IMG/VR virus record: IMGVR_UViG_3300020044_005158 | Span: 1-63,828 of that record | DNA from: a virus | Lineage: Duplodnaviria; Caudoviricetes | Strand: one strand, 5' to 3' | Length of the DNA: 63,828 bases | In this document: in pieces, positions 19,593-39,791 of the stretch | How positions within the stretch are numbered: the stretch's first letter is position 1 | How the letters are laid out: every line of letters starts with the position of its first letter | The notes under the pieces: generated by a model | What the model was told of the DNA's origin: nothing | The model's input: only the letters and a program-made list of their open reading frames with translations | The model's database searches: none | Made by a program: the position numbers and the translations under genes

Positions 19593-19985
19593 TTACATAC
19601 TATCATAATCAAATTCCTCACGAACTGGATCAACTATCTTAATCCATCGATCAGGATCAATGTAGTTACATACGATCAACATCTTGGACCAGTTACCAAT
19701 CCATGTTAGGTAGTCGTCATACTCCTGTCTGTTCAAGAATCCAAGCGCCACATTCTTCATGTGTTTCTTAGTTCTTAACAGACTGTCAATCGTGTAGTCA
19801 TCATGATTGTGATAGTTGTCCACCATCCCACACCACCAGACTAACTCACGTCCGGTCTTCTTGAGTCCTTTATGTACTGCATCAACGAAGTCCATGCCTC
19901 CGTTATAACTTCCAAACTTCTTGTAAAGGAAGTCGACAGCATCTACGCTGTCTTTAACTCCCTTAAATTCATTTATCAAATTCAT
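19593..19985 (-). CDS. Hypothetical protein
   Basis: Operon-packed ORF. Confidence 0.55.
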   Translation of the reverse strand: MNLINEFKGVKDSVDAVDFLYKKFGSYNGGMDFVDAVHKGLKKTGRELVWWCGMVDNYHNHDDYTIDSLLRTKKHMKNVALGFLNRQEYDDYLTWIGNWSKMLIVCNYIDPDRWIKIVDPVREEFDYDSM

Positions 19986-22341
19986 TTATTTTTAATTGTT
20001 TCATTGGTTCGACAAAGACAATGGACTTTCCAATATCTAATTTTTTCTCTCTAGGTAGTTCACCATACTTGATTAACGCAAATTCCTTAATCCAATTGTA
20101 GAATGTCCTATGCGCCAGCTTCATCTTTCCAAACGCTCCGTAATCAGGATATTGGGAAATAAAGTCAGCCATAAGATCAGCACCACGGAATTCAATTCCC
20201 GGCTTCAGTGAGTAACTCTTGTCAGTTCCTGTAGCCCATTCATAGAACTCCGGTGAGGTCTTGGCAAACAACTGTCTGTTATCTAGGTTTTTAAATTTGG
20301 CTTCTCTCAGTCCCTTCTGCATGAATATTTGCATGTTGGAAATCATGAAGCTATCAAATCTGGACCACTCGTCCGCATCCCAATCATCAAACAATCGTCT
20401 ACCAAGCTCATCCTTTGGAGTGTGTGACTTATTGTAATACTGATGAAATTCAACCTCCCATCTGCGTCTATCGTGGGAGTTGCCACCACCTTTAATCGCC
20501 CAGTTAGTTGTAATTATCATCTTTGGCACAAGCTCAAACGGAATAAAGATTTCTTTACTGTTCTTTACCTCGATCGACATACCGTCGGTGATCATCGAGA
20601 ATAAGGTCTGGAAGTGGAATCCCTTGTCAGCATCATTGAAACAGATTACTTGAGTATCAGTTGATACCCTCTGATAAGTAAACCTGCCCTTTAGATCAAT
20701 CTTCTGTGCGTCCAGAATGACTGACCGTCTTATCTTTGATACTGAGTTTACGAATATACCCTTTCCAGTTCCTCCCTCTGGCTTGTCTGTAATCGACTCA
20801 TCATTTAGAATCACAACGGGATTATATGCCGGGTCATTGTATCGATGTAGCATATAACCAAGTGTGGTCCGCATGGTAAGAAAACGATCTGACTCACTGC
20901 CTGCAATCGTGTAGATAAATCTCTCAAAGTCGCATCCGCTGTAGTCCATCTCTCTGTAGTCCCTATCAAGAATTGACTTCTCCCATACCAGACCGTTAAG
21001 GTCATCGTATGACATTCTAGAAATTCCTGACGGAGTTACTCTAACTGCACAGTTGCGGTAAAAAATATACGACTCCTTCTCGCCATCCATTAAGAATCTA
21101 TGATTGACTGACGGAAGGAAAGACAGGAAGTCCTCCTTCTGCAGTTTCAAGTTCCCAACGTATGCGTTGTAGACTGACTTATCTTCGAGTTCAAACATCC
21201 ACTCAGACACGAAGTCTTTAATGTGGTCATCAAGGACTTCTCGAATGACGTTATTCCTTAAGTGTACGAATATGAACGTACCCTCTTTTGATGCGTAATA
21301 CTTGAAGAAACCATTCTCAGTAAGGAACTCTCTGTACTTGTGATTAATAAAATTGACTGCTCCAGTTTTAGGATCCTTTGTCCAGAACTCAACCTCACTT
21401 ACCTTGATATCTTCTAACACATCGTCCGTGGCTTCGGGCACGATCTTTCGTATCTCTTCAGGCGTTACACCGTTGGCAACCAATGCCGTAACTTTCTGTA
21501 CTGTAGCCTTATCTTCCCATTGCTTTGTTCCGTGTATCTCAGTCTTTACATACGCTGATTCAACGGTTCTACTAATCTCTGATTCTGTGAAGTCTGGCTG
21601 TACAAATTGTAGGCAGGTCTGTAGTGCTTCATTTCTATCGACACCATACTCATTGAGTGCCTGAGCAAGTACGTACATGTTGTGATTCCGGGCGCCAGAA
21701 ACTAAGCCATAGTTCTTATTCCACCAAGAGAGAATTCCGATCGTAATTTTGTTCGTGTCATTGGTAGGTATTAGTACCTTCCTTTGTTCTCTTTCTGGCT
21801 CAATAAGTTTACCCGTCCATACCTTCGAGCTACTGTTCGAAAATACGTGAGGATCATATGACTCATATGTTATCCGACTGATATCACTGCATGCTGCATC
21901 AAACTCTTCACAATCATAGTACTGTTCGATTGCCTTGAAGTATTGCTTGTATTCATTTGCGTCACACATTGGAATTTGCACAAGAACCTTTAAACCATCC
22001 CCGGACGGAGAGGTAAAAAGGCTGTGCGTGTAATCGTCCATTTCTAACTCAAAACGTTTAGTCTCAAGTGATGTGGGTGAACTAAACCCATCAAAATCAA
22101 TTGACATAAATCCAGACGACTCAATAAGTCCAGCGATAGAACGACTACTGAATTTTCCTCCGTAACAAACGGCAGGTAGCTTTTTCTTTATTTCGTTTCG
22201 TTGTGGCTTATCTAAGTCAGAATTTCTAATCTGCTCGCACAGATCTTTGGATTTTCCATTTCTTATCCGATCGATTGCACCCTCCACAGATATGTAGTAG
22301 GGACTATTCGTTTCATTTAAATTTTTGAATATAGTTATCAT
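19969..22341 (-). CDS. Primase-helicase (BT4734/VirE-N-like primase, PriCT, SF3-type helicase)
   Basis: KKKLP, IDFD, SPSGDGLK, SYDP, GARN, GGTGKG, ITTN, DRRR. Confidence 0.85.
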   Translation of the reverse strand: MITIFKNLNETNSPYYISVEGAIDRIRNGKSKDLCEQIRNSDLDKPQRNEIKKKLPAVCYGGKFSSRSIAGLIESSGFMSIDFDGFSSPTSLETKRFELEMDDYTHSLFTSPSGDGLKVLVQIPMCDANEYKQYFKAIEQYYDCEEFDAACSDISRITYESYDPHVFSNSSSKVWTGKLIEPEREQRKVLIPTNDTNKITIGILSWWNKNYGLVSGARNHNMYVLAQALNEYGVDRNEALQTCLQFVQPDFTESEISRTVESAYVKTEIHGTKQWEDKATVQKVTALVANGVTPEEIRKIVPEATDDVLEDIKVSEVEFWTKDPKTGAVNFINHKYREFLTENGFFKYYASKEGTFIFVHLRNNVIREVLDDHIKDFVSEWMFELEDKSVYNAYVGNLKLQKEDFLSFLPSVNHRFLMDGEKESYIFYRNCAVRVTPSGISRMSYDDLNGLVWEKSILDRDYREMDYSGCDFERFIYTIAGSESDRFLTMRTTLGYMLHRYNDPAYNPVVILNDESITDKPEGGTGKGIFVNSVSKIRRSVILDAQKIDLKGRFTYQRVSTDTQVICFNDADKGFHFQTLFSMITDGMSIEVKNSKEIFIPFELVPKMIITTNWAIKGGGNSHDRRRWEVEFHQYYNKSHTPKDELGRRLFDDWDADEWSRFDSFMISNMQIFMQKGLREAKFKNLDNRQLFAKTSPEFYEWATGTDKSYSLKPGIEFRGADLMADFISQYPDYGAFGKMKLAHRTFYNWIKEFALIKYGELPREKKLDIGKSIVFVEPMKQLKINEFDK

Positions 22342-22356
22342 AATTTATCGGATAAA

Positions 22357-24272: not shown

Positions 24273-24291
24273 TTGATTATAATTTTAGGGG

Positions 24292-24714: not shown

Positions 24715-24733
24715 ATTAATTGATTTTAATTAT

Positions 24734-25497: not shown

Positions 25498-25726
25498 TTA
25501 ATTGATTCTCTACCTCGGTCCATAAGTCATGCTGTCTAGACCATAAATATTCAGCGACTGGTGGCTTGCACTCATCCTTTATCTTATTAGCGATGTACTT
25601 TGCTATTACTAGCGCTGTCGGTAATTCGATCCTAGATCCATCAGACATCTTTTTTGATCGCATGTGAATAATGTCATCTAGTAACTCTGTAGCTATTTCA
25701 TTAGCCTTCTTCTGTATCTCTGTCAT
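25487..25726 (-). CDS. Hypothetical protein
   Basis: Resembles 27100-27321 (MTE..KKANE...W.EV). Confidence 0.55.
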   Translation of the reverse strand: MTEIQKKANEIATELLDDIIHMRSKKMSDGSRIELPTALVIAKYIANKIKDECKPPVAEYLWSRQHDLWTEVENQLNDI

Positions 25727-26252: not shown

Positions 26253-26772
26253 ATTTAGTTTTACTGATTAATATACCTTCCGTTCTACCGGGGAAGACTG
26301 CCGTTTTATCAATAAGGAAATCAATCCTATTCTTGAATCTCTTGTTCATCGTGTCATGCAGTATCCACCACCCACGAATGCGTTTGTCAGGATGGTACAC
26401 GTATACCCTATCACCGTAGCTAAAATGTCCTCCATGACGATCAATCAGGTCTCTCGACAGTGCAATCCACCGTAGCTTACCTGAACGTAGCTTAGATTGA
26501 TCGATAATTTGTCCGTCAGCAGTCTCTAACGGACGTGCATCCGTCTGCCCTACATCGGCATGATAGTACGTACCGATGACCTTCCTGATGACTGGCTTCT
26601 CAACTATCGTCCTGATTGGATTAATGACTGTTCGACTGATAGTATAGTCTCTCGGAAGACATGATAGTATCAAGATAGTGAATCCGACTAACGTGGCGAC
26701 CATTATCTTTATCGGACGTGCGTTATGACGTTCGTATGACAGTGTGTCTGGATTGAATTTGTATAGACTCAT
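26245..26772 (-). CDS. Membrane-anchored 3D-domain (peptidoglycan-acting) protein
   Basis: TYY..QTD..P..TADG, IALSRDL, DTM..R...IDFL; N-terminal hydrophobic helix. Confidence 0.7.
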   Translation of the reverse strand: MSLYKFNPDTLSYERHNARPIKIMVATLVGFTILILSCLPRDYTISRTVINPIRTIVEKPVIRKVIGTYYHADVGQTDARPLETADGQIIDQSKLRSGKLRWIALSRDLIDRHGGHFSYGDRVYVYHPDKRIRGWWILHDTMNKRFKNRIDFLIDKTAVFPGRTEGILISKTKFV

Positions 26773-27026
26773 ACTACTTCTTTATTGTTAAAAATATCAT
26801 CTAAATAATCACTCCTAAAGGAAGTACCTCCTATCCTATGATCATCTGGTAATTCAATCACATGGTCTTGCTTTATTTTAAATTCAGGAAATACATCCTT
26901 GAATACTGCTACTGAATCTCTAACCATAGATGGTGCGTATGTATGCCTTCCATGTGCGTACCTTGCAGCCATCCATAGTATATCCTCAATGGCTGACTGA
27001 AGTCTTTTCTCATCTGATTTTTTCAT
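26769..27026 (-). CDS. Hypothetical phage protein
   Basis: RYA.GR.TYAP motif. Confidence 0.6.
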   Translation of the reverse strand: MKKSDEKRLQSAIEDILWMAARYAHGRHTYAPSMVRDSVAVFKDVFPEFKIKQDHVIELPDDHRIGGTSFRSDYLDDIFNNKEVV

Positions 27027-27099
27027 CTTATTTTAAATTAATTAAGTGTTAAAAATAACATCTTCCCAAAACATATTAACTTAATCGAGTTTTAGGATT

Positions 27100-27321
27100 T
27101 CATATCGATTTTATTTCTGATTTAACTTCATTCCAATAATCTATTCTCTGTTGAACATATCCATCTGTTCTATCAAACATATCATTTTCCTTAATTATCT
27201 CATCAACTGCAATTAATGCACATATTTTAGCGTTCTCAATTTGTCCTTCAGATGAGTAAGCCTCTACGTATTCAATGTACTTATCAACTAACTCATTCGC
27301 TTTCTTCTTTGCTTCTGTCAT
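27100..27321 (-). CDS. Hypothetical phage protein
   Basis: AK.CALIAVDEI..YW.EVK.EI motif. Confidence 0.65.
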   Translation of the reverse strand: MTEAKKKANELVDKYIEYVEAYSSEGQIENAKICALIAVDEIIKENDMFDRTDGYVQQRIDYWNEVKSEIKSI

Positions 27322-27335
27322 AACTTTTAATTTAA

Positions 27336-27569
27336 TTACTTACGTTTCACAATCATAATTGTACGGTCTGATGTACATATTATAATCCCAACTACATGAA
27401 ATCCTGACTGATTTAAATGCTTCGCTATTTGATTATCTACCGTCTCTGGTCCATGAATGAAGACCGTCTCCTCTGAATCATCAACTAAGTTCTTGACAAC
27501 TACATGTCCCTTAAACAGACCGTCCAATACCTCGAACGCTCCATCATAATTCTCTATCTCTATTCCCAT
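27336..27569 (-). CDS. Hypothetical protein
   Basis: Operon-packed ORF. Confidence 0.5.
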   Translation of the reverse strand: MGIEIENYDGAFEVLDGLFKGHVVVKNLVDDSEETVFIHGPETVDNQIAKHLNQSGFHVVGIIICTSDRTIMIVKRK

Positions 27570-27571
27570 AT

Positions 27572-27766
27572 CTAATTCAAAAATATATCCTCAAGTACTA
27601 CATGCAGACTGCTCTGACGTACTGAGTAAATGTTAAATATTGCGTCCGGATCCAAGTCACCTAGGTATTCACCTGCTAGGATTATTGCCGAACCTATATC
27701 TGCCGTGTCGACCGTTATAAAGAACTCGTTAGGTCCAAGTCTTGTCTGAATGATGTATGTCTTCAT
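27572..27766 (-). CDS. Hypothetical protein
   Basis: Operon-packed ORF. Confidence 0.5.
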   Translation of the reverse strand: MKTYIIQTRLGPNEFFITVDTADIGSAIILAGEYLGDLDPDAIFNIYSVRQSSLHVVLEDIFLN

Positions 27767-27926
27767 ACCTTTCTGATTATATAACTAAATGCTGGAATGA
27801 CTACCACTAGACCAAATCCATAAAACGCTGAGTACTGAAATGAATACATGATGCCTGAAATAACTGCAATATTCATTAGCAGAACTATAATTAAGTACTT
27901 TACCATATCAATTAGTTTTAAATTAG

Positions 27927-27997
27927 TAGTCAGGACAGGAATCGAACCTGTATACTCCGGCTTAAAAGGTCGGGCTTTACCATTAAGCCACCTGACT
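27927..27997 (-). tRNA. tRNA-Lys(TTT)-like, atypical
   Basis: AGTCAGG/CCTGACT acceptor, GCTT/AAGC D-stem, CTTTTAA anticodon loop, ACAGG-TTCGATT-CCTGT T-arm; no encoded CCA. Confidence 0.7.
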
Positions 27998-28193
27998 ATT
28001 AACTAGTTTATTTATAATACCCATTGCTTTTTACATAGTTGAATGAATAAATAATTAGTAAGAACTCATTCTTCTGGATTTAAGTTTCTAAAATTACAAC
28101 GTGACCTACCCATTAGAGATCTAATTATTCTATTCACGAACTTGTGTCTTCTTCGTTCATTCCTGTAGTCCAACAACTCTTTCTTTGATTTTC

Positions 28194-28406
28194 TCATTTG
28201 TAGTAGCCCTCACTCTTTACATGATTGAACGCATCAATCAGTTTGTCTAACTGGTCCTGATGAAAGAATATAGTTATCGGATTAATTGATACACGAACTC
28301 CCTTCATCTTGTATATGTAGTCCTCAACTACCGATATCATGTGCAAAATAATTCCTTGTGTGTTCATGATAATATTTTTAAGTGTTAGCATTTTTTCTAT
28401 ACTCAA
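28194..28406 (-). CDS. Hypothetical protein (true start probably MNTQG)
   Basis: Operon-packed ORF. Confidence 0.5.
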   Translation of the reverse strand: MSIEKMLTLKNIIMNTQGIILHMISVVEDYIYKMKGVRVSINPITIFFHQDQLDKLIDAFNHVKSEGYYK

Positions 28407-28758
28407 TCTCTTTTTTAATAAGATTCAAGTGCCAATCCGCACCGCCATAATCAAGCACTGCCTCTAAGTATTCATCATCCATATCGCGTATCGCGATGTA
28501 CGATAATGGCTGACCACCATCCTTACCTCTGCTACCTCTAGTAGCATATTCTCTTACAATCTCAAAGTCATCGTCATCATATACTGCAAATAATTTTATT
28601 TTATTCATGTATTTTGCACCATACCTCAAGTACTCTGTACCTCCATCAACCATTGCCTCGTTTGGACATGAGCATGTCTTGTAGTCATGACGGTGGTAAC
28701 TTACTATTGTTTCACTGCACTCCTGACAAGTTACAGAGTTATATACTAGTTGTTTCAT
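28378..28758 (-). CDS. Zn-binding phage protein
   Basis: CxxC..S.HRHDY..CxC...VDGG..Y.R. Confidence 0.7.
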   Translation of the reverse strand: MKQLVYNSVTCQECSETIVSYHRHDYKTCSCPNEAMVDGGTEYLRYGAKYMNKIKLFAVYDDDDFEIVREYATRGSRGKDGGQPLSYIAIRDMDDEYLEAVLDYGGADWHLNLIKKEIEYRKNANT

Positions 28759-28782
28759 TATCTGTTTTTTAAGTGTTCAAAA

Positions 28783-29025
28783 TCATTCAATGACTAATCC
28801 ATAGTCATTTGCCGTCTCCCGAATAAACTCTCTTAGCTTATCGGCAACATCAACCTCCTCAATGCTGGCAGGCTTGCTACAATCAACAAGACTGCTGTTA
28901 TACTTAACAACCTTCCTTAACTCCTGATCGATCTCCCAAACCAATGCCCTCCATTTCCCTCCATTGATGGCTGAATGCATTTCTTCCTGCTCCTCAATAC
29001 CATCGAACTCTATTGTTACCTTCAT
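28783..29025 (-). CDS. Hypothetical phage protein
   Basis: EF...E....AING.KW...WEIDQELR. Confidence 0.6.
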   Translation of the reverse strand: MKVTIEFDGIEEQEEMHSAINGGKWRALVWEIDQELRKVVKYNSSLVDCSKPASIEEVDVADKLREFIRETANDYGLVIE

Positions 29026-29040
29026 ATCTTTTCTTTTTAA

Positions 29041-29257
29041 TGACGAATTGATTTCTTGTTAGGTCGCACTATCACTGACGAATGACGTAACTGACGAATT
29101 GATTCCTATTACTATATATATCATGTACCTATGTACTTTTTATTTAAAGAAATCTTAATAGAGTAACTTCGTCAGTTACGTCAGAACACTAGTGTTTATG
29201 CGCTTCCTTGCGTCAGAACTTCGTCAGTTTTTTAATCAACTTCGTCAGTTCTGTCAG
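29041..29257. repeat. Iteron-like element A: TGACG x4, AT-rich core, CGTCAG x5 (candidate replication origin)
   Basis: Oppositely oriented pentamer clusters around an AT core; inverted homolog at 34763-35072. Confidence 0.65.
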
Positions 29258-29427
29258 CCTTAGTTATTAAATTCCTAGTACGTACCACTTAAGAGTAAAC
29301 AGCATCCCCACCATCATTCCTGCGAACGATAACGGAACACCGATTATACGAATGGCTGAATACCTTGAAACCGAACAGTAATACAACGTAAACGTGAATC
29401 CTATCCAAAATAATGGCGCGAACATAA

Positions 29428-29658
29428 TTAATCACATTTAATTATGTATCTATCAAGCATAGATGTTTCAATGTATTGACCTGTTTCTTTAGAACACAAG
29501 TCTGGTTGTGGTGTAGTAGTTGAAGTAATAGACCATGCCCCACCTGCACCTAAGTGTTCATTCTGTTGATAGCATTCACATTCTTTAGCGGTTGATTTAT
29601 CCTTCTTACAAGAAAATAATAATGCTGTCAATCCTAGTACTAATGTTACTTTTCTCAT
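29428..29658 (-). CDS. Small lipoprotein
   Basis: Signal peptide with LFSC lipobox. Confidence 0.7.
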   Translation of the reverse strand: MRKVTLVLGLTALLFSCKKDKSTAKECECYQQNEHLGAGGAWSITSTTTPQPDLCSKETGQYIETSMLDRYIIKCD

Positions 29659-29665
29659 GGTTTAT

Positions 29666-29980
29666 TTATTTATTGGTTAAACTTAAATTTTGATCGATGA
29701 ATGACTTATACTGCAAAATCAATTCATCTAATTCTTTTGATTTAATTGTGTAAGGTAACCTGATGTCTTCATTGTATAGCAACACCTCTATTCGATGTCT
29801 CCAATTGGACAGCGGCTCAAAATAGACAGACATACTGTCATAATTGTTTGCACAATAGATACCTATCTTCACGTCCTTATTTATAAAGTAAGTGATTGTA
29901 TCTAACACCAATTGATTGTCTTTACCAATCCTAGCACACTGATGCGCCAGTTCTACTAGCGTCTTAATTTTTTTATTCAT
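29666..29980 (-). CDS. Hypothetical early protein
   Basis: Operon-packed ORF. Confidence 0.55.
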   Translation of the reverse strand: MNKKIKTLVELAHQCARIGKDNQLVLDTITYFINKDVKIGIYCANNYDSMSVYFEPLSNWRHRIEVLLYNEDIRLPYTIKSKELDELILQYKSFIDQNLSLTNK

Positions 29981-30192
29981 GAGTTTAAATGTTTTAAAAC
30001 GTAATCAAATCCTAATGTTTCAATCTTTCCTTTGCTAAACATCAGCTGTGTGTCATCTTCTACCTTCTCGCACTCACACGTCTTGTTCACCTCGTCAATT
30101 GATTTGATGATGTAAGCGATTGTAACTCTACCATGACTCGCAGTCGCTGTTCTGCCTTCGTAAGACTCTGAAATTCTATTCCCTATTTCCAT
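29977..30192 (-). CDS. Hypothetical early protein
   Basis: Operon-packed ORF. Confidence 0.55.
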   Translation of the reverse strand: MEIGNRISESYEGRTATASHGRVTIAYIIKSIDEVNKTCECEKVEDDTQLMFSKGKIETLGFDYVLKHLNS

Positions 30193-30379
30193 AATTTTTA
30201 TTTTTAATTTACACTAACTAGTTTACTGTAATCACAATCATCCTTAAGGATTGAAATTATTTTATCACATATGCTATGAATCAACTCTACCCTCTTCTGA
30301 TTATAGAAAAGGATAAGGTCGATGTTGCTGTCTGCATTCTCTTGCAGCCTTGATATAAGACTGTCTAGCTCCCTTAAAT

Positions 30380-30751
30380 TCATAGCTCCGTAGTTTTATC
30401 GCTGTCAATGTGGTAGTATGCCCTCTGTCCATTCTTAACTGCAAAATGTAGCGCATCGCTCTCGCTATCGTATACCCTTGAGATGTCCAATACCAAGTCC
30501 TTGCCCTCTATCCATCCACCCAAGAAATTGATTGGATTGTTTAACTCAACACCGTTCTCTCCAATGAATAGAGATACAGCTGAATGTATTAGTATCTGCT
30601 TGGTGACATCATCTCCAAAGATCGGCAAGACGGATTCGAATCCCTTCTCTGATACCACAAATCCGGTAGTTGGTGCTGTGCCAGTCACGATGTTAAATGT
30701 TGCTCCACCGTTCTCAACGATGGACGCAACGAATTCATGTAAGTTTTTCAT
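30380..30751 (-). CDS. Early phage protein (GGAT..G.VVS..LGGW..LDIS..GQ family; start MKNLH)
   Basis: Start re-called at the repeated leader motif. Confidence 0.6.
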   Translation of the reverse strand: MKNLHEFVASIVENGGATFNIVTGTAPTTGFVVSEKGFESVLPIFGDDVTKQILIHSAVSLFIGENGVELNNPINFLGGWIEGKDLVLDISRVYDSESDALHFAVKNGQRAYYHIDSDKTTEL

Positions 30752-30940
30752 GGTGTTTAGTTTTAAATGTTTATAAATTTTCGTAAATCTCAGACTCTTC
30801 CTTGATGCTGTCAACACTGATTAATTCAGCATGTTTAATTCTTAGTAATTTAGATTCAATGAGGTCTTTAATGTCCTGCTTTGTACGTGTTACATCAACT
30901 TCTAAAGTTATAGTAACTTGAATTTCTTGTGTCATAATTT

Positions 30941-31141
30941 CTAGTCTTTATAAATTGAATAATACTCGTATCCTACTCTCAGAATCTCATCGTCAGAAAT
31001 CTCTGAATGAGTTAATCCGTGAAATAACTCTAACGTATCACAATCATCCTTTAGTATATCACGGATAACTTTTAATGCCTTCTTTTCGGAGTATCTAACA
31101 TCATTGCTAGATACTGTGCCCTCGTCTATGTATGGCTTCAT
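30941..31141 (-). CDS. Hypothetical early protein (start MKPYID)
   Basis: Repeated leader motif before ATG. Confidence 0.55.
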   Translation of the reverse strand: MKPYIDEGTVSSNDVRYSEKKALKVIRDILKDDCDTLELFHGLTHSEISDDEILRVGYEYYSIYKD

Positions 31142-31327
31142 GGCGTTTAGTTTTAAATGATTAATAAATTTGTTCATGTATGTCATAACCAAACTCGTTA
31201 TGCCTTCCATTTGCTACTACTAAAGAGGCATACTTAAGCGCCTCGCTTTCGTCATGAAAGTCATCTTGTTTGCGATAAATTTCATTACCTTCTATATCTA
31301 AAAATACTATAGTGTAAAACATAACTC

Positions 31328-31573
31328 CTACGATTTAATGCCTAGTGGCGTGAATAATAATCTCTTCAATCTAATCAGACTTGCATCATCGTACAAACTA
31401 ATTAACTCAGCAGCGCGTGATGGCTGTATTGTTAGCTTGCCTAACACAATATGGTTTAGCTCACCTGCCTGCTTACTTAGTGCGATTTGCTGCAATCTCT
31501 CACGGATTGTTAGCTGTCTGATTGTACCGGCTGTCGCTTGGAAGCCAATACCATTTGGAATTTTTCCGTTCAT
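31328..31573 (-). CDS. Hypothetical early protein
   Basis: Repeated leader motif before ATG. Confidence 0.55.
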   Translation of the reverse strand: MNGKIPNGIGFQATAGTIRQLTIRERLQQIALSKQAGELNHIVLGKLTIQPSRAAELISLYDDASLIRLKRLLFTPLGIKS

Positions 31574-31596
31574 GTTTTCTAGTTTTAAATTATTAG

Positions 31597-31833
31597 TTAA
31601 TATTCTTTTTCATTTAATCCGTCATCTACAGCACTATCTGTAATGCAAGAAAAGATTTGCTGTACAATGTATTCGTTCGTTAACGCATCATTTAATATAT
31701 CTTGTGCAGTATCATCGTCACATTCGAATCTATCTTGAACGTCATTTATACTCCACAAGTTATCAACGAAATAACCTGCTTGTTTCAATACTAACTTTGC
31801 GTTAGCTATTGCAATTGCTCTACTTGTTTCCAT
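31597..31833 (-). CDS. Hypothetical early protein
   Basis: GY..NLW...DV motif; acidic. Confidence 0.6.
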   Translation of the reverse strand: METSRAIAIANAKLVLKQAGYFVDNLWSINDVQDRFECDDDTAQDILNDALTNEYIVQQIFSCITDSAVDDGLNEKEY

Positions 31834-31920
31834 GGTTTCTTAATTATATTTGTTAATGTATAAATTCATTAGTCTTGATAATCCAATAAGGATTAATCTT
31901 TGGTTTGATGCGTTCATGTC

Positions 31921-32331
31921 TTAAAGTTTTTGATAAATAACTACCTCGTCATCTAGGTGATGACAGTCTTCCAATTGCTCAAAGTCTTCTGATTCCGACT
32001 TGATGTATTCAATCACCTCTGCGTCAGACTCTGCGTCATGTAGAGCATACTCGTTCACGTCCGGATTGATGGTGACTGATACAATTCCGACTGGCAATTC
32101 TTCAAAATGTACAGCACCATAGCTGTCATACTCGTCATCATCGATTGGATTGATGCCATAAATAACTTGGCGTTCCGTTAGAACCAAGCTACCATTGTCA
32201 CCACAGAATTCCGTAGCTAAATTGATTGCATATACCTTCGCGTCATCTAATGACTCGAATTCCTTTACTTCTGCCTTGCTGTTGCTGTAGCCTTCGCCAT
32301 TGAAGGTATCTACTATAATGAATTTATTCAT
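31921..32331 (-). CDS. Acidic early protein (start MNKFII)
   Basis: Repeated leader motif; Asp/Glu-rich. Confidence 0.6.
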   Translation of the reverse strand: MNKFIIVDTFNGEGYSNSKAEVKEFESLDDAKVYAINLATEFCGDNGSLVLTERQVIYGINPIDDDEYDSYGAVHFEELPVGIVSVTINPDVNEYALHDAESDAEVIEYIKSESEDFEQLEDCHHLDDEVVIYQKL

Positions 32332-32374
32332 GATTACTTGTTTTAAATGATTAGTTAATTTTGTTAATGTATTT

Positions 32375-32683
32375 TTACCATCTGATATAAACATAATAAC
32401 TTGGACTACAAGTCACAATTTTAAATCCCTTTTCTTCAAGGTAAGGTCTCATTTTTGTTTCAACCAATCTTTGCAAGTTACCATCATTAAATAATTCCGC
32501 TACAACTTTGTTGTGTGTATCTTCATTTTGAAAACTACCAATTGATAACTCATTCCGTTTTAAATTCTCTGCAATTCTAACCATTCTCGGAAAAAGTACT
32601 TCGTCATATACTCTATCAAACTTTGGTCTATCAATATCTTTGACTTCAGATATTAAACTTCTTAATTTTTCTAAATCATTCAT
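32375..32683 (-). CDS. Hypothetical early protein
   Basis: Repeated leader motif. Confidence 0.6.
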   Translation of the reverse strand: MNDLEKLRSLISEVKDIDRPKFDRVYDEVLFPRMVRIAENLKRNELSIGSFQNEDTHNKVVAELFNDGNLQRLVETKMRPYLEEKGFKIVTCSPSYYVYIRW

Positions 32684-32857
32684 GGTTTCTAGTTTTAAAT
32701 TGTTTATTACTTTATTTCGTAGTTGATATACTTGATTCCTTGTTTTCCGTCAACCTTGGCGATGTAATTCTCCAAGTGACGGATGTCATTGAATTCCTTC
32801 ACTACTTGGTAGTATTCCTTGCGTGAATTCTTGAACGTGATTACTGCTGTCATGACT

Positions 32858-33112
32858 CTAATTTTTGTAGTATTCATACTCGAATTTATTTCTGATTTCT
32901 CTACCGTATGCCGTATCAAATCCGTATGACGTAGCGCCTTGTATTGTGTTTGAACGCTCGATGATGTAGTGAAACAAGTCTTTCTTGTCTAATTTGTGAC
33001 ATTTTGCCGTCTCAATGATTGCATAGTACATTCTGTAGATGTCATGCTTCATTGCACCATAGTTGCTAGTGATGTAGTCAATTATGTATTTCTTACTGAT
33101 TGTATTTCTCAT
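32858..33112 (-). CDS. Hypothetical early protein
   Basis: Repeated leader motif. Confidence 0.55.
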   Translation of the reverse strand: MRNTISKKYIIDYITSNYGAMKHDIYRMYYAIIETAKCHKLDKKDLFHYIIERSNTIQGATSYGFDTAYGREIRNKFEYEYYKN

Positions 33113-33171
33113 GATTTCTAGGTTTTAAAATTGTTTTTTTTCTTTATGCTATAAATAAGACAAAGAGAGTT

Positions 33172-33348
33172 TTAACTCTCTCTTGCTTTTAAATACTCAG
33201 ATTGCGCTCTCATAGCAATGAGTTTTAGTTTCAATGCATCTATTTTCTCATACATAGATTCACTAATCCACCATTCTTCAGCATCTACTTTGTTTAAAAG
33301 GAATTGCATTAATTCTATTTCTTCATAAGTTAAGGTTATCTTTTTCAT
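33172..33348 (-). CDS. Hypothetical early protein (58 aa, MKKITLTYEE...)
   Basis: Manual translation; repeated leader motif. Confidence 0.55.
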   Translation of the reverse strand: MKKITLTYEEIELMQFLLNKVDAEEWWISESMYEKIDALKLKLIAMRAQSEYLKARES

Positions 33349-33386
33349 AATTTCTAGGTTTTAAAATTGTTACAATTTGATTACTG

Positions 33387-33584
33387 TCATGATTTAATTA
33401 TTTGATTGATTAACTCACTTTTAAATGGTTCTAATAATTCAGTTGATGGAATTATTTTTTCACCTTCAACTAAACGTATTTCAGATAAATTATCTTTACT
33501 CCATAATCCTATTTCATTATTTGAATATCTTAATGGAGTATTGTCTTTTTTGATTACTACAAAATCAGTTGGGAATAATATCAT
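33387..33584 (-). CDS. First early gene, hypothetical
   Basis: Repeated leader motif; directly downstream of the hammerhead. Confidence 0.55.
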   Translation of the reverse strand: MILFPTDFVVIKKDNTPLRYSNNEIGLWSKDNLSEIRLVEGEKIIPSTELLEPFKSELINQIIKS

Positions 33585-33612
33585 AATTTCTAGGTTTTAA
33601 ATATTTACGTTT

Positions 33613-33661
33613 GCTTTTCATCCTTTAGGAATCATCAGTCAGCATACACATGCTGAGAAGC
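33613..33661 (-). ncRNA. Type III hammerhead ribozyme
   Basis: Minus strand GCUU-C-UCAGCA-UGUGUA-UGCUGA-CUGAUGA-UUCC-UAAA-GGAU-GAAAAGC: full core and three stems. Confidence 0.8.
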
Positions 33662-33856
33662 GAGGGAATTGGCTTAGACTTTTCAGCCCCGTTCCCTCAT
33701 TCGGACGTCTTAAATGATTTCTTGTTTCAATGGTATATTGTCGAAAGTATAGAGAAACAATAAGGTCTATACTACCAAGGCTTTCCACCTCTAGTCAAAC
33801 CATGTAAGGAACTATTTTACTGACTATATTTTGTTTGTTGCCTATCTCATCAACCG

Positions 33857-33873
33857 ATATGTGTAAAGAACTT
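33857..33873 (-). promoter_or_regulatory. boxA-like antitermination motif AAGTTCTTTACACATAT
   Basis: Resembles boxA (GyTCTTTaACA) within the early leader. Confidence 0.4.
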
Positions 33874-34062
33874 ATTAATTGTATTCGTATTGTATTCTTG
33901 ACTGAGTTACTCACTACTCATTAAGACTGTGCTTGTACCATGCCTTAACTCTTCGTACTTCTCTCACCTCATGTAGCATACTGATTCATCATCGTAACAT
34001 CTGAAAGGCTTGTCATTTGTAAGCTAAGTAAAAGTGAGAACGTTTTCCCGACTTGCTTGAAA

Positions 34063-34094
34063 CAAATCTACTACAACTGTTTTGATTACACAAG
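34063..34094 (-). promoter_or_regulatory. Early promoter (-7 TAGATTTG, -33 CTTG, 20-nt spacer)
   Basis: Bacteroidota promoter geometry at the head of the leftward arm. Confidence 0.6.
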
Positions 34095-34130
34095 TTATTA
34101 TGTTAAATAGAACGAAAATAATTGCATAAA

Positions 34131-34184
34131 TTCGACGAATGACCTAATTCCTTCGACGAATGATAGGAATTCTTCGACGAATGA
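34131..34184. repeat. Three TTCGACGAATGA direct repeats, 21-bp period
   Basis: Copies start at 34131, 34152 and 34173. Confidence 0.85.
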
Positions 34185-34445
34185 TTAAAACGATTTAACA
34201 TCATTACTTAAGTCATTGAGAATGAATGAATTAACTCCCCTTACGCGTGCGCGTGTATATGTGCAGGATTTAATTAACGGGAGAATGGGGGATTGGTGTG
34301 GCTATTCAAACAGTCAGCAAGTACGAACGCATGCAAAAGTATCAGGCAAGATAACGCCAAATGAATGGATTGAATTGGATCCGGCAGACAGGCAGAAAGA
34401 ATGCATGACAGCATAAACGCTTGGGCATCAGCGCATTAGCAATGA

Positions 34446-34473
34446 CTGTCTTATAATATACATTATGTTAAAT
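34446..34473 (+). other. dif-like XerC/XerD recombination site
   Basis: CTGTCTTATAA-TATACA-TTATGTTAAAT: 11-6-11 layout, perfect XerD arm. Confidence 0.8.
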
Positions 34474-34762
34474 AGAACATGAATTGATGCGTAACGGTAT
34501 GGATGTCAGGCAGTTATACTGTATGACTTAAAGTAATACATCAAGCCTCAACACATGCATAACATAGGCAACATGTAGGTACATGCATCAGCGCATAGCT
34601 AGTGTACGTAAGGCATGCAGACAAAAAGGTAAAAAGTTAGGACGAAAGTCTGAAAACAAGCACCCCCCCATGCCGATTTTGGACGCTTTCCTTTCGCCCG
34701 GGCGCGCGTGAAATGTATATATAACGTAAACTCTCCGCACGTGCAATAACTCAAAAATTCTT

Positions 34763-35072
34763 TCTGACGTCAAATGTTAAAAAATGACGTAAAACTGACG
34801 ATACTGACGAATTACTGACGAAGTGCCCCTTCTGTAACCCTTGATTTTGCTGGATTCCTGACGGTACTGACGATTACTCTCCTATTAAGATTTCTTTAAA
34901 TAAAAAATAAGGTAAATAGTATATATATTATTAGAATATAATAGGGGACCACTTCGTCAGTATCGTCAGAAACTCAGTAAAACTGGGCATCTTGAAAATC
35001 CGTATCGTCAGTTTTTCGAGTTTTACGTCAGTCATTGATACTTTTACGTCAGGAATCGTCATTTATCGTCAG
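34763..35072. repeat. Iteron-like element B: TGACG x7, AT-rich core, CGTCA x7 (candidate replication origin)
   Basis: Same architecture as 29041-29257; core is its reverse complement. Confidence 0.7.
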
Positions 35073-35116
35073 TTTGCGAAAGTGTGATCGGCTCCGCTTC
35101 GTTAGAGATAATTCAT

Positions 35117-35124
35117 TATCTTTG
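35117..35124 (+). promoter_or_regulatory. First rightward -7 box TATCTTTG (TAnnTTTG also at 35310, 36530, 37200, 39618, 39780, 42867, 45414, 52471, 55874, 56482)
   Basis: Recurrent TAnnTTTG just upstream of + strand genes. Confidence 0.7.
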
Positions 35125-35147
35125 CGGTATAATTAAAACATTAGATC

Positions 35148-35303
35148 ATGCAAAAAGCTACAAATAGAGATTACCCACTAGCTCCTACATTCTCAAAAGA
35201 TGACAAGGAGAAGAGAAAGGAGAAGAGAAAGCAAAATAAAATTGAGAGAAGCTCAGGTCTTGAGTACGAGCCGAAGGTACGTAGACGTCACATGAAGGGA
35301 TAA
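35148..35303 (+). CDS. Small basic protein (51 aa, MQKATNRDYPLAPT...)
   Basis: Manual translation; own promoter. Confidence 0.55.
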   Translation: MQKATNRDYPLAPTFSKDDKEKRKEKRKQNKIERSSGLEYEPKVRRRHMKG

Positions 35304-35346
35304 TTTACTTATCTTTGCACCTGTATATACATTAAAAAAATAAATC

Positions 35347-36045
35347 ATGGCAAGACAACTAAATAACAATACTGTAAAGCCTAAAAAAAAGAATGATTTT
35401 GGAGTCATGACTCCTGAAGAAGAGGCAAGATTCAGAAAGGAGTATAACATACCAAAAGACAAGGATATCACGATATCTGAAGGAGACTTGACGAATTATC
35501 GAAAAGGATTAGTTGACGGTAAGTTGGCATACAGCTTAAATGACAAGAAGGTACCAGAGAAACCAAAAAGAGAAGAGATTACAGCAAAGTTACCTACAAA
35601 GAAGTTGGTATCTAAACCTATAGATAAATCAATTCAGAAGAGTTCCACTCCTAAGAAGGAAGCTGTTGAGAAGCCTAAGTTCGAGCCATCTCCTAAGACT
35701 AAGAAGTTAACTAAGGGTAGTGGAAGAACAGGTAATATTGGAACTGCTATAAAGAATGTTGTTGGAAAGCGAGTATTCAAGAAAGAAGAGAAGATGGCTG
35801 GTGCATACAACAGAGCTACAAGTGCATCTGGAACTGGTTCTCAAGCTGGAATGAATAAAGCAGATAGAAGTATAGACCTAAAAGATCAAATTAAAGATCT
35901 TAAGTCAGTAAGAAAGGACGTTAAGAAGAGTACTGGATACGATGTAAAGAAAGACATAAAGGACACCAAGAAGGCTTTAAAGTGGTCTGATCAGGTTGGA
36001 TCTTCAAAAAATAGGTATCTATCTATTAGTGGTAGAAAGAAATAA
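35347..36045 (+). CDS. Lys-rich basic protein
   Basis: Own promoter; low-complexity basic composition. Confidence 0.65.
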   Translation: MARQLNNNTVKPKKKNDFGVMTPEEEARFRKEYNIPKDKDITISEGDLTNYRKGLVDGKLAYSLNDKKVPEKPKREEITAKLPTKKLVSKPIDKSIQKSSTPKKEAVEKPKFEPSPKTKKLTKGSGRTGNIGTAIKNVVGKRVFKKEEKMAGAYNRATSASGTGSQAGMNKADRSIDLKDQIKDLKSVRKDVKKSTGYDVKKDIKDTKKALKWSDQVGSSKNRYLSISGRKK

Positions 36046-36159
36046 TAATTTACCGTTCATCATTTTATTTAACCGTTCATCATATTTTTGGTGGACGGTT
36101 TGTTTTTTATGTATATGTTCGTAATGTAATTAATCAGTAATAATTTAAAACAATAAATC

Positions 36160-36492
36160 ATGAAGACAACAATTTTATTATTAGCGATGACACTATCGTT
36201 CGCTGCACAATCTCAGACACTTAGTAATCCAATAGTTCTAAAGAACTTCAGCAAGGACATGGATAGAAACATCTGGTACACATCAAGAGATCCTGAGGAG
36301 AAAAACACTAGAAGAATTATCGGGACAAATGAGGTCATGGACGGGTACTACCAAGAGGTGGTTGAGTACTTCAACTTCGACCCAGAGGTTCCGACAAGAG
36401 TAGACGGAGTAGTTAAGATCTGGGAGGACGACAACTACCTAATAAGAGTTCCTATAAATAACCATACTCAAATATCAATAGAAAAACTATAA
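36160..36492 (+). CDS. Secreted/periplasmic protein
   Basis: Signal peptide MKTTILLLAMTLSFAAQS-Q; followed by terminator 36498-36525. Confidence 0.7.
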   Translation: MKTTILLLAMTLSFAAQSQTLSNPIVLKNFSKDMDRNIWYTSRDPEEKNTRRIIGTNEVMDGYYQEVVEYFNFDPEVPTRVDGVVKIWEDDNYLIRVPINNHTQISIEKL

Positions 36493-36551
36493 AAATTGAG
36501 ACCGAGAGATCGGTCTCTTTTATTTTTGTTATCTTTGTTAAAAAATAAATC

Positions 36552-37031
36552 ATGGCAGTAATAGAGGAAGGAACACAATTCATAGGGGTATCAGCAAATG
36601 TACCTATACCAGAGAACAAGTCATCGCAGAATAATTCCTTTCAGGAGGTATACACGATTGAGGACATATCAGAAAATGCTAAGTACGGAGAAATAGAAGA
36701 CTTTTTTGTTTTTACACAATATGACCAAAATATAGTAGTGCTTAATCTTTTATTTAAAAAAACAGGAGAACAAGTTAATGGAAAGCCAGAGTGGGCTGCT
36801 GAAGATAATTATACATATTTTATTAGAATTAATGGTGATCAGACTATATGGAAACTATATCAAGATGATAATGATATAGCATCAATAGATGATGCTGGAT
36901 CAGGATACAAATACCCACCATCAGGAGACTGGGACTTTAATGGAGATCTTTATCCTGTCACTATATCCTATGTATCTGGGTCAATTCAGCAAGCGATTGA
37001 ACAGATTTCATTGATTGCCTTCATTAAATAA
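36552..37031 (+). CDS. Hypothetical, probably virion-associated protein
   Basis: G.QFIG....E.KS..NN..EVYTIEDI N-terminus. Confidence 0.55.
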   Translation: MAVIEEGTQFIGVSANVPIPENKSSQNNSFQEVYTIEDISENAKYGEIEDFFVFTQYDQNIVVLNLLFKKTGEQVNGKPEWAAEDNYTYFIRINGDQTIWKLYQDDNDIASIDDAGSGYKYPPSGDWDFNGDLYPVTISYVSGSIQQAIEQISLIAFIK

Positions 37032-37056
37032 TAAAATAAAGCATAGCAACATACAT

Positions 37057-37093
37057 AAGCCCGGACATTTATTTATGCTCCGGGCTTTTCTTT
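37057..37093 (+). terminator. Intrinsic terminator
   Basis: AAGCCCGGA..TCCGGGCTTTT. Confidence 0.7.
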
Positions 37094-37223
37094 ATACAAA
37101 AAGTGCAATAAGACGCACAAATTAAGTATTTTTCACCTTAATTAAGTACTTTTCACGTAAGAAAGTGCATTATTACGCACGATTATATAATATTTTGACT
37201 ATATTTGCTAAAAATCTAATAAA

Positions 37224-38810
37224 ATGATAGTCAAAAAAGTACATTTAGGTGATTCTGGACAGGAGAAACTAAAGAAAGGAATCAGAATATTAACGGAGGC
37301 GGTTGCTTCTACGATGGGTCCGGGAGGTCGTCCAGTAATTATGGAGTCCGAGCACCATGTAGGAGGCAAGACGATCACAAAGGACGGTGTGTCTGTAGCC
37401 AAGGCGGTGAATGTGTTTGATGCGACCGAGCAGTTGGGCATCACGATAGCAAGGGAGGCATCAGTACAGACGGCTACGGCAGCTGGCGACGGAACCACTA
37501 CAGCTTTGGTGATACTACAAGGAATGCTAGATGCAGCGGATGCACACCTTACTGACAAGCATAACGTCACTCAGGTAGTTCGTCACATCCACACGCTGAC
37601 GGACGATGCGATTAAGTTTCTAGACAAGAAGTCCAAGAAGGTAACGAAGAAGAAGTTAGATCAGGTGGCAACTATTTCTGCCAATAACGACCCGGAGCTA
37701 GGAAAAATGATCTCCGATTTGTTTGGGAAGGTTAAGATTGTAACTGCCGAGATTGGAAAGCAGCCGTTCGTTACTACGGAGATTATTGACGGGATGAAGT
37801 TCGACCGTGGATACGCGAACGAGTACTTCATCACGGACCAAGAGCGTGAGGTAGCGGAGCTAGATAATCCGTTGATTCTCTTGACTGACATGACGATCGA
37901 GAAGCTGGGTGGACACCTTGAGTCTATACTGGGTCCAATCATCCGTGAGAACAGGTCGTTACTAATCATTGGCAACATGTCTGATCAGGCTCGTGCGACA
38001 CTAGCGGCTAACAAGATGAAGGGGGTAATCAAGGCGGTTAACGTGATCCCACCAAACTTTGGATACCGTCAGAAGGAGATGATGAAGGACTTGGAGGTAG
38101 TTCTTGGGGCGAAGTACTACTCGGAGGAGACTGGAGACGGACTTCACAACATTACGCTAGACGGACTAGGTACAGCGAAGAAGGTAATTATATCGGCAGA
38201 CAGGACAGTTATCTACCGTTCAGATGAAATAGATCAGGAGCCACTAAACAATCGCTTAGAGGAGCTTAAAAGCAAGATGGCGTCCGACAAGACGTTAGCC
38301 GAGAAGAAAGACACCGAGTCAAGGATAGCAAACATTGAGGGAGGAGTTGGTATTGTGCATGTAGGTGCGCCATCAGAGATTGAGACGAAGGAGTTATATG
38401 ACCGAGTTGACGATGCTGTGCGTGCTGTAAGTGCAGCCATTCAGGATGGAATACTTCCGGGTGGAGGTGCAGCTCTGATGTATTACACTCAGAGAGGACC
38501 AGTACAGACGGATGAGAACAAGTCAGTTGCTGAGAGCATTTTTTATACTGCACTAGCGGCTCCATTCAATCGAATCATGCTAAATGCTGGGCTTCATCCA
38601 AGTGAGATACGTTCAAACATAATGGAGGTCGGTGACTTCGGGTACGGGTTCGACGTGAAGAACGAGAAGTACGGGATGATGGAGAAGATGGGAGTGATTG
38701 ATCCTACGATGGTAACGAAGAGCGCACTGAAGAATGCGGTATCTGTAGCCACTACGATCATGTCAAGCCAAGTAGCAATTGTAAATATGAGAGAGAATGA
38801 GAGCTTATAA
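37224..38810 (+). CDS. groEL: Phage chaperonin GroEL
   Basis: ITKDGVSVAK, GDGTTT, GMKFDRGY, RVDDA, PGGG, GVIDP. Confidence 0.95.
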   Translation: MIVKKVHLGDSGQEKLKKGIRILTEAVASTMGPGGRPVIMESEHHVGGKTITKDGVSVAKAVNVFDATEQLGITIAREASVQTATAAGDGTTTALVILQGMLDAADAHLTDKHNVTQVVRHIHTLTDDAIKFLDKKSKKVTKKKLDQVATISANNDPELGKMISDLFGKVKIVTAEIGKQPFVTTEIIDGMKFDRGYANEYFITDQEREVAELDNPLILLTDMTIEKLGGHLESILGPIIRENRSLLIIGNMSDQARATLAANKMKGVIKAVNVIPPNFGYRQKEMMKDLEVVLGAKYYSEETGDGLHNITLDGLGTAKKVIISADRTVIYRSDEIDQEPLNNRLEELKSKMASDKTLAEKKDTESRIANIEGGVGIVHVGAPSEIETKELYDRVDDAVRAVSAAIQDGILPGGGAALMYYTQRGPVQTDENKSVAESIFYTALAAPFNRIMLNAGLHPSEIRSNIMEVGDFGYGFDVKNEKYGMMEKMGVIDPTMVTKSALKNAVSVATTIMSSQVAIVNMRENESL

Positions 38811-39601: not shown

Positions 39602-39631
39602 TGTCGCAAATATTGCATACATTTGCGACAA

Positions 39632-39778: not shown

Positions 39779-39791
39779 GTATCTTTGTAAA

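Follow-up and report, generated by a model that had tools for sequence, protein, structure and literature searches.

The window analysed here is the whole of the IMG/VR virus record IMGVR_UViG_3300020044_005158, a stretch of 63,828 bases that, judging by its genes, comes from a crAss-related phage of Bacteroidota. Two copies of one repeat element, here called A and B, lie in inverted orientation about 5.7 kilobases (kb) apart, and each has two opposed arrays of a short repeated site (iteron) around an AT-rich core. Our best reading, to which we give a probability of roughly one half, is that A and B are iteron-type replication origins bound by the primase-helicase of the phage, putatively serving as operators as well. 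An earlier note on this DNA, written from its letters alone, had proposed a bipartite origin. The part of that proposal that stood is that A and B are copies of one cis element with a common unit, belonging to a family tied to the primase-helicase gene; the need for two sites was not supported. The elements and the candidate initiator are located as follows.

Element A, 29041..29257: nine TGACG sites in total, between the minus-strand open reading frames (ORFs) 28783-29025 and 29267-29425.
Core of A, 29097..29169: 73 nucleotides (nt), guanine-cytosine (GC) content 0.21; contains a (TA)n tract as well as an A/T run; polarity opposite to the family norm.
Element B, 34763..35072: 15 TGACG sites in total.
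Core of B, 34873..34954, minus strand: 82 nt, GC content 0.21; in the family polarity, with the C-rich CTAT box first in minus-strand order, then the (TA)n tract and the T-run.
Core block, 34882..34909 in B: 28 nt, of which 27 are complementary to 29134-29161 in A.
Spacer motif, 34830..34848, minus strand: AAAATCAAGGGTTACAGAA, separating the inner from the outer sites in one arm of B.
Primase-helicase, 19969..22341, minus strand: 790 amino acids (aa), with a BT4734-like N domain, PriCT_1 and a DUF5906/D5-type superfamily 3 (SF3) helicase; candidate initiator.
C-terminal 136 residues of the primase-helicase, 19972..20379, minus strand: predicted helical subdomain and winged helix; candidate iteron-binding domain.

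The 24 TGACG sites found over A and B fall into arms of opposite orientation around each core. The left arm of A holds TGACG on the plus strand at 29041, 29076, 29083 and 29092, and its right arm holds CGTCA at 29170, 29179, 29211, 29222 and 29243, with a degenerate TCTGTCAG at the right end. B is built of five outer and two inner sites on the left (TGACG at 34765, 34785, 34796, 34805, 34816, 34859 and 34868) and two inner and five outer sites on the right (CGTCA at 34955, 34964, 35006, 35026, 35047, 35057 and 35067); an extra site at 34768 comes from a palindromic overlap, TGACGTCA at 34765-34772 being the sole palindrome among the sites. The extended site consensus in the two elements is A-C-TGACG-A-A. 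Neighbouring sites are spaced 9-11 or 20-21 nt apart, with one gap of 32-43 nt in each arm, and these spacings would therefore place the sites on one face of the helix. The order of TGACG repeats, AT-rich core and CGTCA repeats recorded in the earlier note is thus borne out by site mapping, and the 25-mers that it quoted from the two cores are exact reverse complements within the longer match of 27 of 28 nt. Aligned with B in reverse complement, A shows an 80% match over 77 nt (E 1.5e-14).

Neither the abundance nor the clustering of the sites was reproduced in randomized sequence. The window contains 60 copies of CTGACG where 14.9 were expected (maximum 23 in 100 shuffles), and 19 of the 60 are inside A and B. 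For TGACG/CGTCA there are 155 copies, compared with a mean of 70.9 and a maximum of 100 in 100 Markov-1 simulations; the densest 320 nt holds 15 such sites, while 100 Markov simulations gave at most five. Each element, taken as a single strand, folds into an extended imperfect palindrome (z of -7.5 in B and of -5.3 in A; no shuffle did as well). Rfam gave no genuine match within A or B, and weak microRNA-precursor rows over B are attributable to its palindrome. A nucleotide search of a 7.1-kb region against 50,697 phage records returned no match. As read from the letters, A and B present repeated sites with helical phasing and an adjacent AT-rich region, as iteron origins do.

Conservation of the element was followed in 80 primase-helicase loci (39-56% identity) collected by an alignment-based homologue search. 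An exact 6-mer detector for opposed arrays found them at 16 of the 80 loci and in none of the block-shuffled copies, and the anatomy at these loci is a common one: outer sites, spacer, two inner sites, core, two inner sites, spacer, outer sites. The family core consists of a C-rich CTAT box, a (TA)n tract (kept in 17 elements from 11 genomes) and a T-run, and the far spacer carries a conserved AATCAA..GTTA(CAGA) motif. Because the spacer motif is kept across genomes whose iteron units differ, a bending protein or a host factor is a candidate to bind there.

The iteron unit is common to both copies within a genome and differs between genomes. In the relative G001 (locus L007; GroEL 57% and primase 60% identical to those of the window) the two-element layout is present with copies 3.7 kb apart, both with the unit GTGTTGAAT. 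Both copies in MW202828.1 have TATGTCGA; its B-type copy is beside the GroEL-side genes and the last site of its A-type copy is 3 nt 5' of the primase ATG. The near-identical strain L004 has kept B with the TGACG unit unchanged. Contig L009, which begins within a B-type element, has the unit ATGTTG, and other units include ATGACGA (L070), ATGTCAA (L074), AATGTTG (L071) and GTGTCGA (L096). All can be seen as variants of one 7-mer close to ATGTYRA, the CTGACGA of the window being one base from the ATGTCGA-type units.

An nhmmer profile built from 13 cores matched 36 of the 80 loci, seven of the 36 belonging to genomes used to build it. At 19 of these 36 loci the centre of the element is 57-120 nt upstream of the primase start codon. 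At 13 it is 4.7-7.4 kb upstream, heading the replication module as A does, and the others are at 0.65-0.7 kb (two loci), 2.5 kb (one) and 9.6 kb (one). The polarity of the core relative to the primase gene is uniform in the best match at 32 of the 36 loci, pointing towards the gene, and relative to the downstream genes it is conserved in 15 of 17 elements read by eye; the minus-strand reading of the B core is also the direction towards the primase gene. The next ORF often begins within about 20 nt of the last iteron. At this level the family displays the linkage to a putative initiator gene that is usual for iteron origins. Element A of the window was itself missed by the core profile at E <= 0.01, and since the detectors and the profile miss degenerate copies, the copy counts given below are lower bounds.

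Family contigs often start or stop in or beside elements (L009 1-215, G013 1-127, L107 8-134, L103 118-257), and these are likely assembly breaks at the repeats or at the (TA)n tract. In contig L003 (IMGVR_UViG_3300020050_003266), unrelated DNA at 1-740 replaces B upstream of a 232-aa gene. The replacement carries GTGACAA repeats and a small-Rep-like ORF in an in-frame fusion to the phage gene, and the contig is probably a chimeric assembly or a recombinant.

Copy number was determined in 13 longer genomes (the window, G001, MW202828 and G004-G013). Two copies were found in six of them (the window, G001, MW202828, G006, G011 and G013), and one clear copy in five (G004, G005, G007, G008 and G010). 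G009 gave one weak match, and G012 one match near the GroEL-side genes, its contig ending at the primase start, where a second copy would lie. In the single-copy genomes the copy is of the A type; it heads the replication genes and lies within the minus-strand block. Inverted pairs are those of the window, G001 and G006, and direct pairs those of MW202828, G011 and G013. Paired elements therefore do occur in relatives, five of them besides the window, but the single copies in five of the 13 genomes argue against a generally obligatory second site, and the even division into inverted and direct pairs gives no support to the idea that the inverted arrangement matters. From these counts the twin inverted layout is best seen as lineage-specific, the outcome of duplicating and inverting an element that the family at large has as a single copy. 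The internal polarity from (TA)n to T-run marks A as the flipped copy in the window and in G001, with arrays intact, while B is in the family orientation. We also considered that B had been flipped between MW202828 and the window, and rejected this; the core ends are quasi-palindromic and it is the internal polarity that identifies A. On the best reading, A is the ancestral copy, flipped in the lineage of the window, and B arose from it by duplication to the strand switch.

No replication initiator-like protein other than the primase-helicase is recognised throughout the family, in part because the loci were selected by it. A model of its C-terminal 136 residues, made with an alignment of 47 rows, shows a helical subdomain followed by a winged helix, with a predicted local distance difference test (pLDDT) score of 87. 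In a wide structural search the 50 matches listed were mostly winged-helix domains (top Z 6.4), and among them the origin-binding domain of P4, 1ka8_A, ranked sixth (Z 5.5, root-mean-square deviation 3.0, 71 residues aligned), level with other winged helices. A phmmer search of the whole primase-helicase against PDB gave nothing meaningful. The predicted winged helix fits a domain order like that of the P4 alpha protein, though the match does not prove homology. That a Q residue of the recognition helix goes together with a GACTTT unit was considered and rejected, the unit being the same GTGTYRAC read further along.

The mechanism that we propose would run as follows. Each element would act as two opposed arrays of a 7-9 base pair (bp) iteron, set at multiples of about one helical turn, flanking an easily melted core of 73-82 bp. 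Monomers of the primase/SF3-helicase would bind the iterons through the C-terminal winged helix, the opposed arrays would place two helicase rings head-to-head on the melted core, and the enzyme would then prime and unwind. B, placed where the early and the rightward gene blocks diverge, could be a second origin or an enhancer that loops to A. The arrays may double as an operator through which the initiator throttles the replication operon, a role that is probable because in relatives the downstream ORF begins right after the last iteron. Since the A copies of the window and of G001, whose primases are 60% identical, are flipped yet intact, function appears to tolerate inversion.

B coincides with the minimum of the cumulative GC skew and with the switch from minus- to plus-strand genes. 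A is inside the minus-strand block, where it separates the small early-type genes from the replication genes; the start of the primase-helicase gene is 6.7 kb downstream of it. Across the A-type element, within co-oriented gene blocks, the skew steps upward in 10 of 11 genomes (mean +0.047, against +0.006 with standard deviation 0.063 in controls), which we count as weak evidence for an origin.

Several points weigh against the origin reading. Gene class and the kinship of the genomes both confound the skew step, and 26% of single control steps reach the observed mean. The loci were selected by primase homology, which leaves room for linkage to other conserved genes. There was no profile match at 44 of the 80 loci, many of the 44 having short upstream flanks and only 21 of the 80 having at least 8 kb of such flank, and the cultured elemo phage NC_055853 has the non-coding region and the hammerhead-like RNA described below without opposed arrays. 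On the protein side, Foldseek returned nothing at E <= 0.001 for the C-terminal domain, its weak rows being mostly winged-helix regulators, and the winged-helix match is a generic one, Z scores of 5-6 being common. Covariation of repeat and primase is seen only loosely: units differ between genomes and the putative recognition helix varies with iteron group to some extent, yet L070 (ATGACGA) and L074 (ATGTCAA) have nearly identical recognition helices despite their differing units. Finally, the uniform core polarity and the ORF starts that abut the last iteron fit a promoter-operator equally well.

That last observation leads to the most serious of the other explanations, one that we regard as rather unlikely, namely that the elements are purely transcriptional: a promoter in the core would fire downstream, and the iterons would be operator or activator sites for a phage regulator, either the MarR-like 159-aa protein or an early protein. 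B would then control the early non-coding RNA and the early genes, and A-type elements the replication operon, in a switch from early to middle timing. B does head the leftward early unit, a host-type promoter box (TATCTTTG) is found beyond its other arm, and a gene for the MarR-like winged-helix protein is present in 11 of the 13 genomes, in addition to the conserved polarity and the abutting ORFs. However, the flipped A copies of the window and G001 would fire antisense and are nonetheless intact, and neither A nor B contains a host-type -7 box or a match to sigma-70-like promoter hexamers. MarR-family proteins bind as dimers to short palindromes, unlike the phased direct repeats seen here, and the MarR-like gene was not detected in G011, a genome with two elements. 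Nor would this reading give a special reason for the elements being so tightly paired with the primase-helicase gene. The origin and promoter-operator readings are in any case compatible, as in iteron plasmids, whose initiator represses its own gene at the origin. Improbable, in our view, is a function as entry or early-promoter sites for an injected virion RNA polymerase (the 3268-aa ORF), comparable to the hairpin promoters of N4, in which the palindrome with its (TA)n centre would open or extrude under supercoiling and offer a preferred single-stranded template. The strong single-strand palindromes of both elements and the position of B at the start of the early unit would suit such a role. 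On the other hand, palindrome arms separated by 73-82 nt, as here, extrude poorly, most family copies adjoin the primase gene and not early genes, and the iterons would be left unexplained. The polymerase gp66 of phage phi14:2 was assayed on denatured phage DNA and M13 DNA, which is in keeping with a single-stranded template, but the early transcripts of phi14:2 are described without a common upstream motif; in the sections available, that study sets out a transcription programme and no origin (bioRxiv 10.1101/2020.03.07.982082).

Two further explanations appear very improbable. One takes the elements as packaging or terminus signals, either terminase sites flanking a cut (pac-like) or the limits of a long terminal repeat in which the early genes would lie. 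Contigs of relatives do break at elements, L009 starting inside one and L107 and L103 at one, the end overlap of G013 is beside its B-type copy, and the G012 contig ends at the primase start. Yet repeats and AT-rich palindromes break assemblies regardless, and the elements are linked to the primase gene rather than to the terminase gene (46746-48947). Sequencing runs were also consulted (24 runs, as assembled contigs only, with a best share of words of 0.26), and four were aligned to 24000-40000. In these four, short contigs of related strains gave no start or end points of molecules and no doubled depth between A and B, contig depth being a coarse measure. The other explanation, of equally low standing, would make them recombination or segregation sites, at which an invertase flips the 5.7-kb segment, or plasmid-type centromeres of an episomal state. 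The two copies are inverted and have a near-perfect 28-nt block in common, the dif-like site beside B hints at a circular, plasmid-like phase, and a phage-plasmid lifestyle is claimed for crAssphage in the accessible part of a published study (PMC10983915). Against this, no recombinase of the serine or tyrosine type and no gene of the ParA/ParM type turned up in Pfam and PHROG searches with 87 ORFs of the window, the protein at 16462-16890 having a resolvase-type helix-turn-helix (HTH) only. Direct copies are found in three of the six paired genomes, and many genomes are single-copy. No strand-changing joint was seen among the 15 of 91 joints listed, although such joints could still exist.

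It is textbook knowledge that iteron origins occur beside initiator genes, that dual origins exist and that P4 has its ori/crr pair. The element family itself is not in print as far as literature searches show, although its kind is known; new here are the opposed arrays around a presumed unwinding core and the link to a BT4734-type primase/SF3-helicase. With the iteron plasmids pSC101, R6K, P1 and F, and with the lambda origin, the elements have in common phased repeats beside an AT-rich unwinding region. The position directly upstream of the initiator gene at 19 of 36 loci would suggest autoregulation, as in those plasmids, and a conserved extra motif is found where a bending factor would bind. 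They differ in having two opposed arrays around the core instead of one array beside it, and in their presumed initiator, a primase/SF3-helicase fusion rather than a Rep or O-type protein. The P4 alpha protein is a primase-helicase with a C-terminal origin-binding domain that acts on ori and crr. The analogy with P4 drawn in the earlier note would extend to the protein, one polypeptide that combines primase and SF3-type helicase with what is predicted to be a C-terminal winged helix, as P4 alpha does, and to the two sites a few kb apart with a common repeat, whose relative orientation appears not to matter. It fails as to generality, the second site not being obligatory in the many relatives with one element. 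Each element here is also a palindrome with its own AT-rich core, the 1ka8 match reaches only Z 5.5, and the primase domain is of the BT4734-like/PriCT_1 kind, which may be a further difference.

The pentanucleotides of SV40 site II and the E1 sites of papillomaviruses are likewise opposed short repeats on which hexamers assemble head-to-head at an A/T tract. Their sites abut with the A/T tract alongside, whereas here 73-82 bp separate arrays of four to seven sites per arm, and the DNA-binding domains are not known to be homologous. In lambda, OL and OR are two clusters with one motif that bracket a gene block of a few kb, and the motif differs between related phages, as it does here; the arrays of four to seven direct repeats are nevertheless unlike three palindromic dimer sites. 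A lambda-type operator pair is further disfavoured in that A and B have no promoter-like hexamers and that no repressor or DNA-binding family was found among the scanned ORFs between them, several ORFs of 50-60 aa there not having been scanned. Nor do the elements resemble parC-type centromeres, as Pfam found no ParA, ParM or ParR-type family among the 87 window ORFs and the arrays are opposed, not all direct. For prototypic crAssphage (Carjivirus communis), two origins predicted by OriFinder are reported 2.6 kb apart near the strand switch, tied to RepL genes and supported by GC skew and nanopore coverage (PMC10983915). The two candidates a few kb apart, near a strand switch and early or plasmid-type genes, recall A and B; iteron palindromes and a primase-helicase link are not mentioned in the portion of that paper at hand (PMC10983915).

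A wider and tentative view, which we hold as possible rather than probable, is that this crAss-related family of Bacteroidota starts replication in the manner of small eukaryotic DNA viruses, with the element and the helicase gene as the ancestral replicon. The winged helix would read the opposed iterons and two rings would assemble head-to-head over the (TA)n core. In some lineages the element would have been duplicated to the head of the early region, beside the dif-like site and a ribozyme-processed RNA, giving a plasmid-like maintenance region with two looping origins.

A and B bracket the small early-type genes, as the earlier note had described, and a 1.1-kb non-coding stretch with a hammerhead-like RNA and a dif-like site, where the note had a leader RNA and a dif site. 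These and the other features of the genome are as follows.

Plus-strand genes: 1-14850 and 35148 onward.
3268-aa ORF, 5044-14850: in the position of a virion RNA polymerase.
Minus-strand genes: 15129-33584, with the replication genes at the left of the block.
HTH_23 protein, 16462-16890: resolvase-type HTH only; considered, like the MarR-like protein, as another DNA-binding candidate; among the 13 genomes, only in the window and G001.
Small early-type genes between A and B, 29267-33584, minus strand.
Run of small genes, 30771-33584, minus strand.
Type III hammerhead-like RNA, 33606-33664, minus strand: closes the non-coding stretch, a short way upstream of the first early gene.
Conserved non-coding stretch, 33585..34762, minus strand: 1.1 kb, between B and the first early gene.
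Three direct TTCGACGAATGA repeats, 34131-34183 (in L007, 6790-6850): spaced 20-21 nt.
Dif-like 11-6-11 site, 34446-34473, plus strand: CTGTCTTATAA TATACA TTATGTTAAAT, with a half-copy at 34097-34113.
Host-type -7 box TATCTTTG, 35117..35124, plus strand: 45 nt past the last B site and 24 nt 5' of the ATG at 35148.
MarR-like winged-helix protein, 42358-42837, minus strand: 159 aa, matching PDB 8ylh (E 0.0065); in 11 of the 13 genomes.
Terminase gene, 46746-48947.

Early in infection this non-coding stretch is probably transcribed as an RNA of its own. The TTCGACGAATGA repeats within it are unchanged in L007, in which the iteron unit of A and B differs, and we take them as a separate conserved binding site or RNA feature on that pattern. 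A scan of viral contigs for the triple-repeat pattern gave 20 loci, the only relatives among them being the two already known, and a hairpin-pattern scan of metagenomes gave one locus, identical to L007. The hammerhead-like RNA is also found in L007 at 6488-6546 and in L039 (NC_055853) at 17862-17923, both on the minus strand. Its Rfam score of 29.7 bits (E 0.0045) is below the gathering score of 48.5, and Rfam reported no hammerhead in MW202828 or L007. RNAalifold on the three phages nevertheless recovered a three-stem topology around CUGANGA and GAAA with 14 pairs, eight of them compensatory. The predicted RNA could cleave the early non-coding RNA from the early mRNA. The dif-like site is kept in seven of the 13 family genomes, in varying orientation, and its right arm presumably equals the arm that XerD binds in known dif sites. 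Bacterial chromosomes carry a looser version of the pattern, one per locus, with Bacteroidota in 67 of the 80 matches listed, which suggests Xer-dependent dimer resolution or integration as the role of the site.

The 121-nt end repeat of the record is an assembly overlap within a Thr-rich ORF that crosses the record ends, and the map is therefore circular. The genome has a GC content of 0.381, and Pfam and PHROG matches identify it as that of a crAss-related podovirus, with crAss muzzle protein, terminase, portal and capsid, in addition to GroEL/GroES, SSB, a superfamily 2 (SF2) helicase and exonucleases. By protein search the nearest named relatives are MW202828.1 (terminase 65%, primase 42% identity), the Flavobacterium "elemo" phages and Cellulophaga phages. 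Boxes of TATCTTTG, which we take to be the -7 box of Bacteroidota, stand ahead of many plus-strand genes, and a box after the B-type element is also found in relatives. The MarR-like gene is the lone minus-strand gene in the plus block, with back-to-back host-type -7 boxes (about 42858-42874) in the 45 nt that separate it from its neighbour.

A motif ATTTAAAAC(C)TAGAAA stands immediately 5' of the ATG of several of the small genes at 30771-33584 (gene starts 30771-33617, minus strand). In MW202828.1 there are 14 copies of a perfect 16-bp palindrome, GTGTCGTTAACGACAC, upstream of early genes at 43745-55154, and G013 has 12 copies of GTGTCTTCAAAGACAC. All three are candidate early promoters or terminators. 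We considered the palindromes as a tie between the arrays and early-gene control and rejected this, as their half-sites do not track the iteron and they occur in only two of the 13 genomes. In related strains (90-99% identity, four public runs, window 24000-40000), whole small early genes are inserted or deleted, with joints that skip, for example, 31138-31320 and 32354-32707, and gene turnover is thus concentrated in the early block. The replication block contains a tRNA-Lys(UUU) gene at 27926-27997 (minus strand), over which the metagenome contig depth is about eightfold above that of neighbouring sequence, as expected given that host tRNA genes may match it. In L007 a tRNA match at 3219-3336 (minus strand) has a 59-nt insertion in the anticodon region.

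For the start of replication in crAss-type phages, the only proposal that we found in the literature, in the portion of the source at hand, is the software prediction for crAssphage (PMC10983915), and searches on elemo phages and on primase-helicases with iterons found nothing relevant. The element described here offers a concrete, conserved and easily recognised candidate origin for a family of Bacteroidota phages, together with a likely initiator domain. Bench tests are made simple by the sizes involved, a 136-aa domain against 220-310 bp of DNA. The element can serve as an annotation marker in related metagenomic genomes and is a possible starting point for shuttle replicons in Flavobacteriia. 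As for the phages themselves, the twin inverted layout of the window would reflect the history of one lineage, a duplication and an inversion, rather than a design principle of the family.

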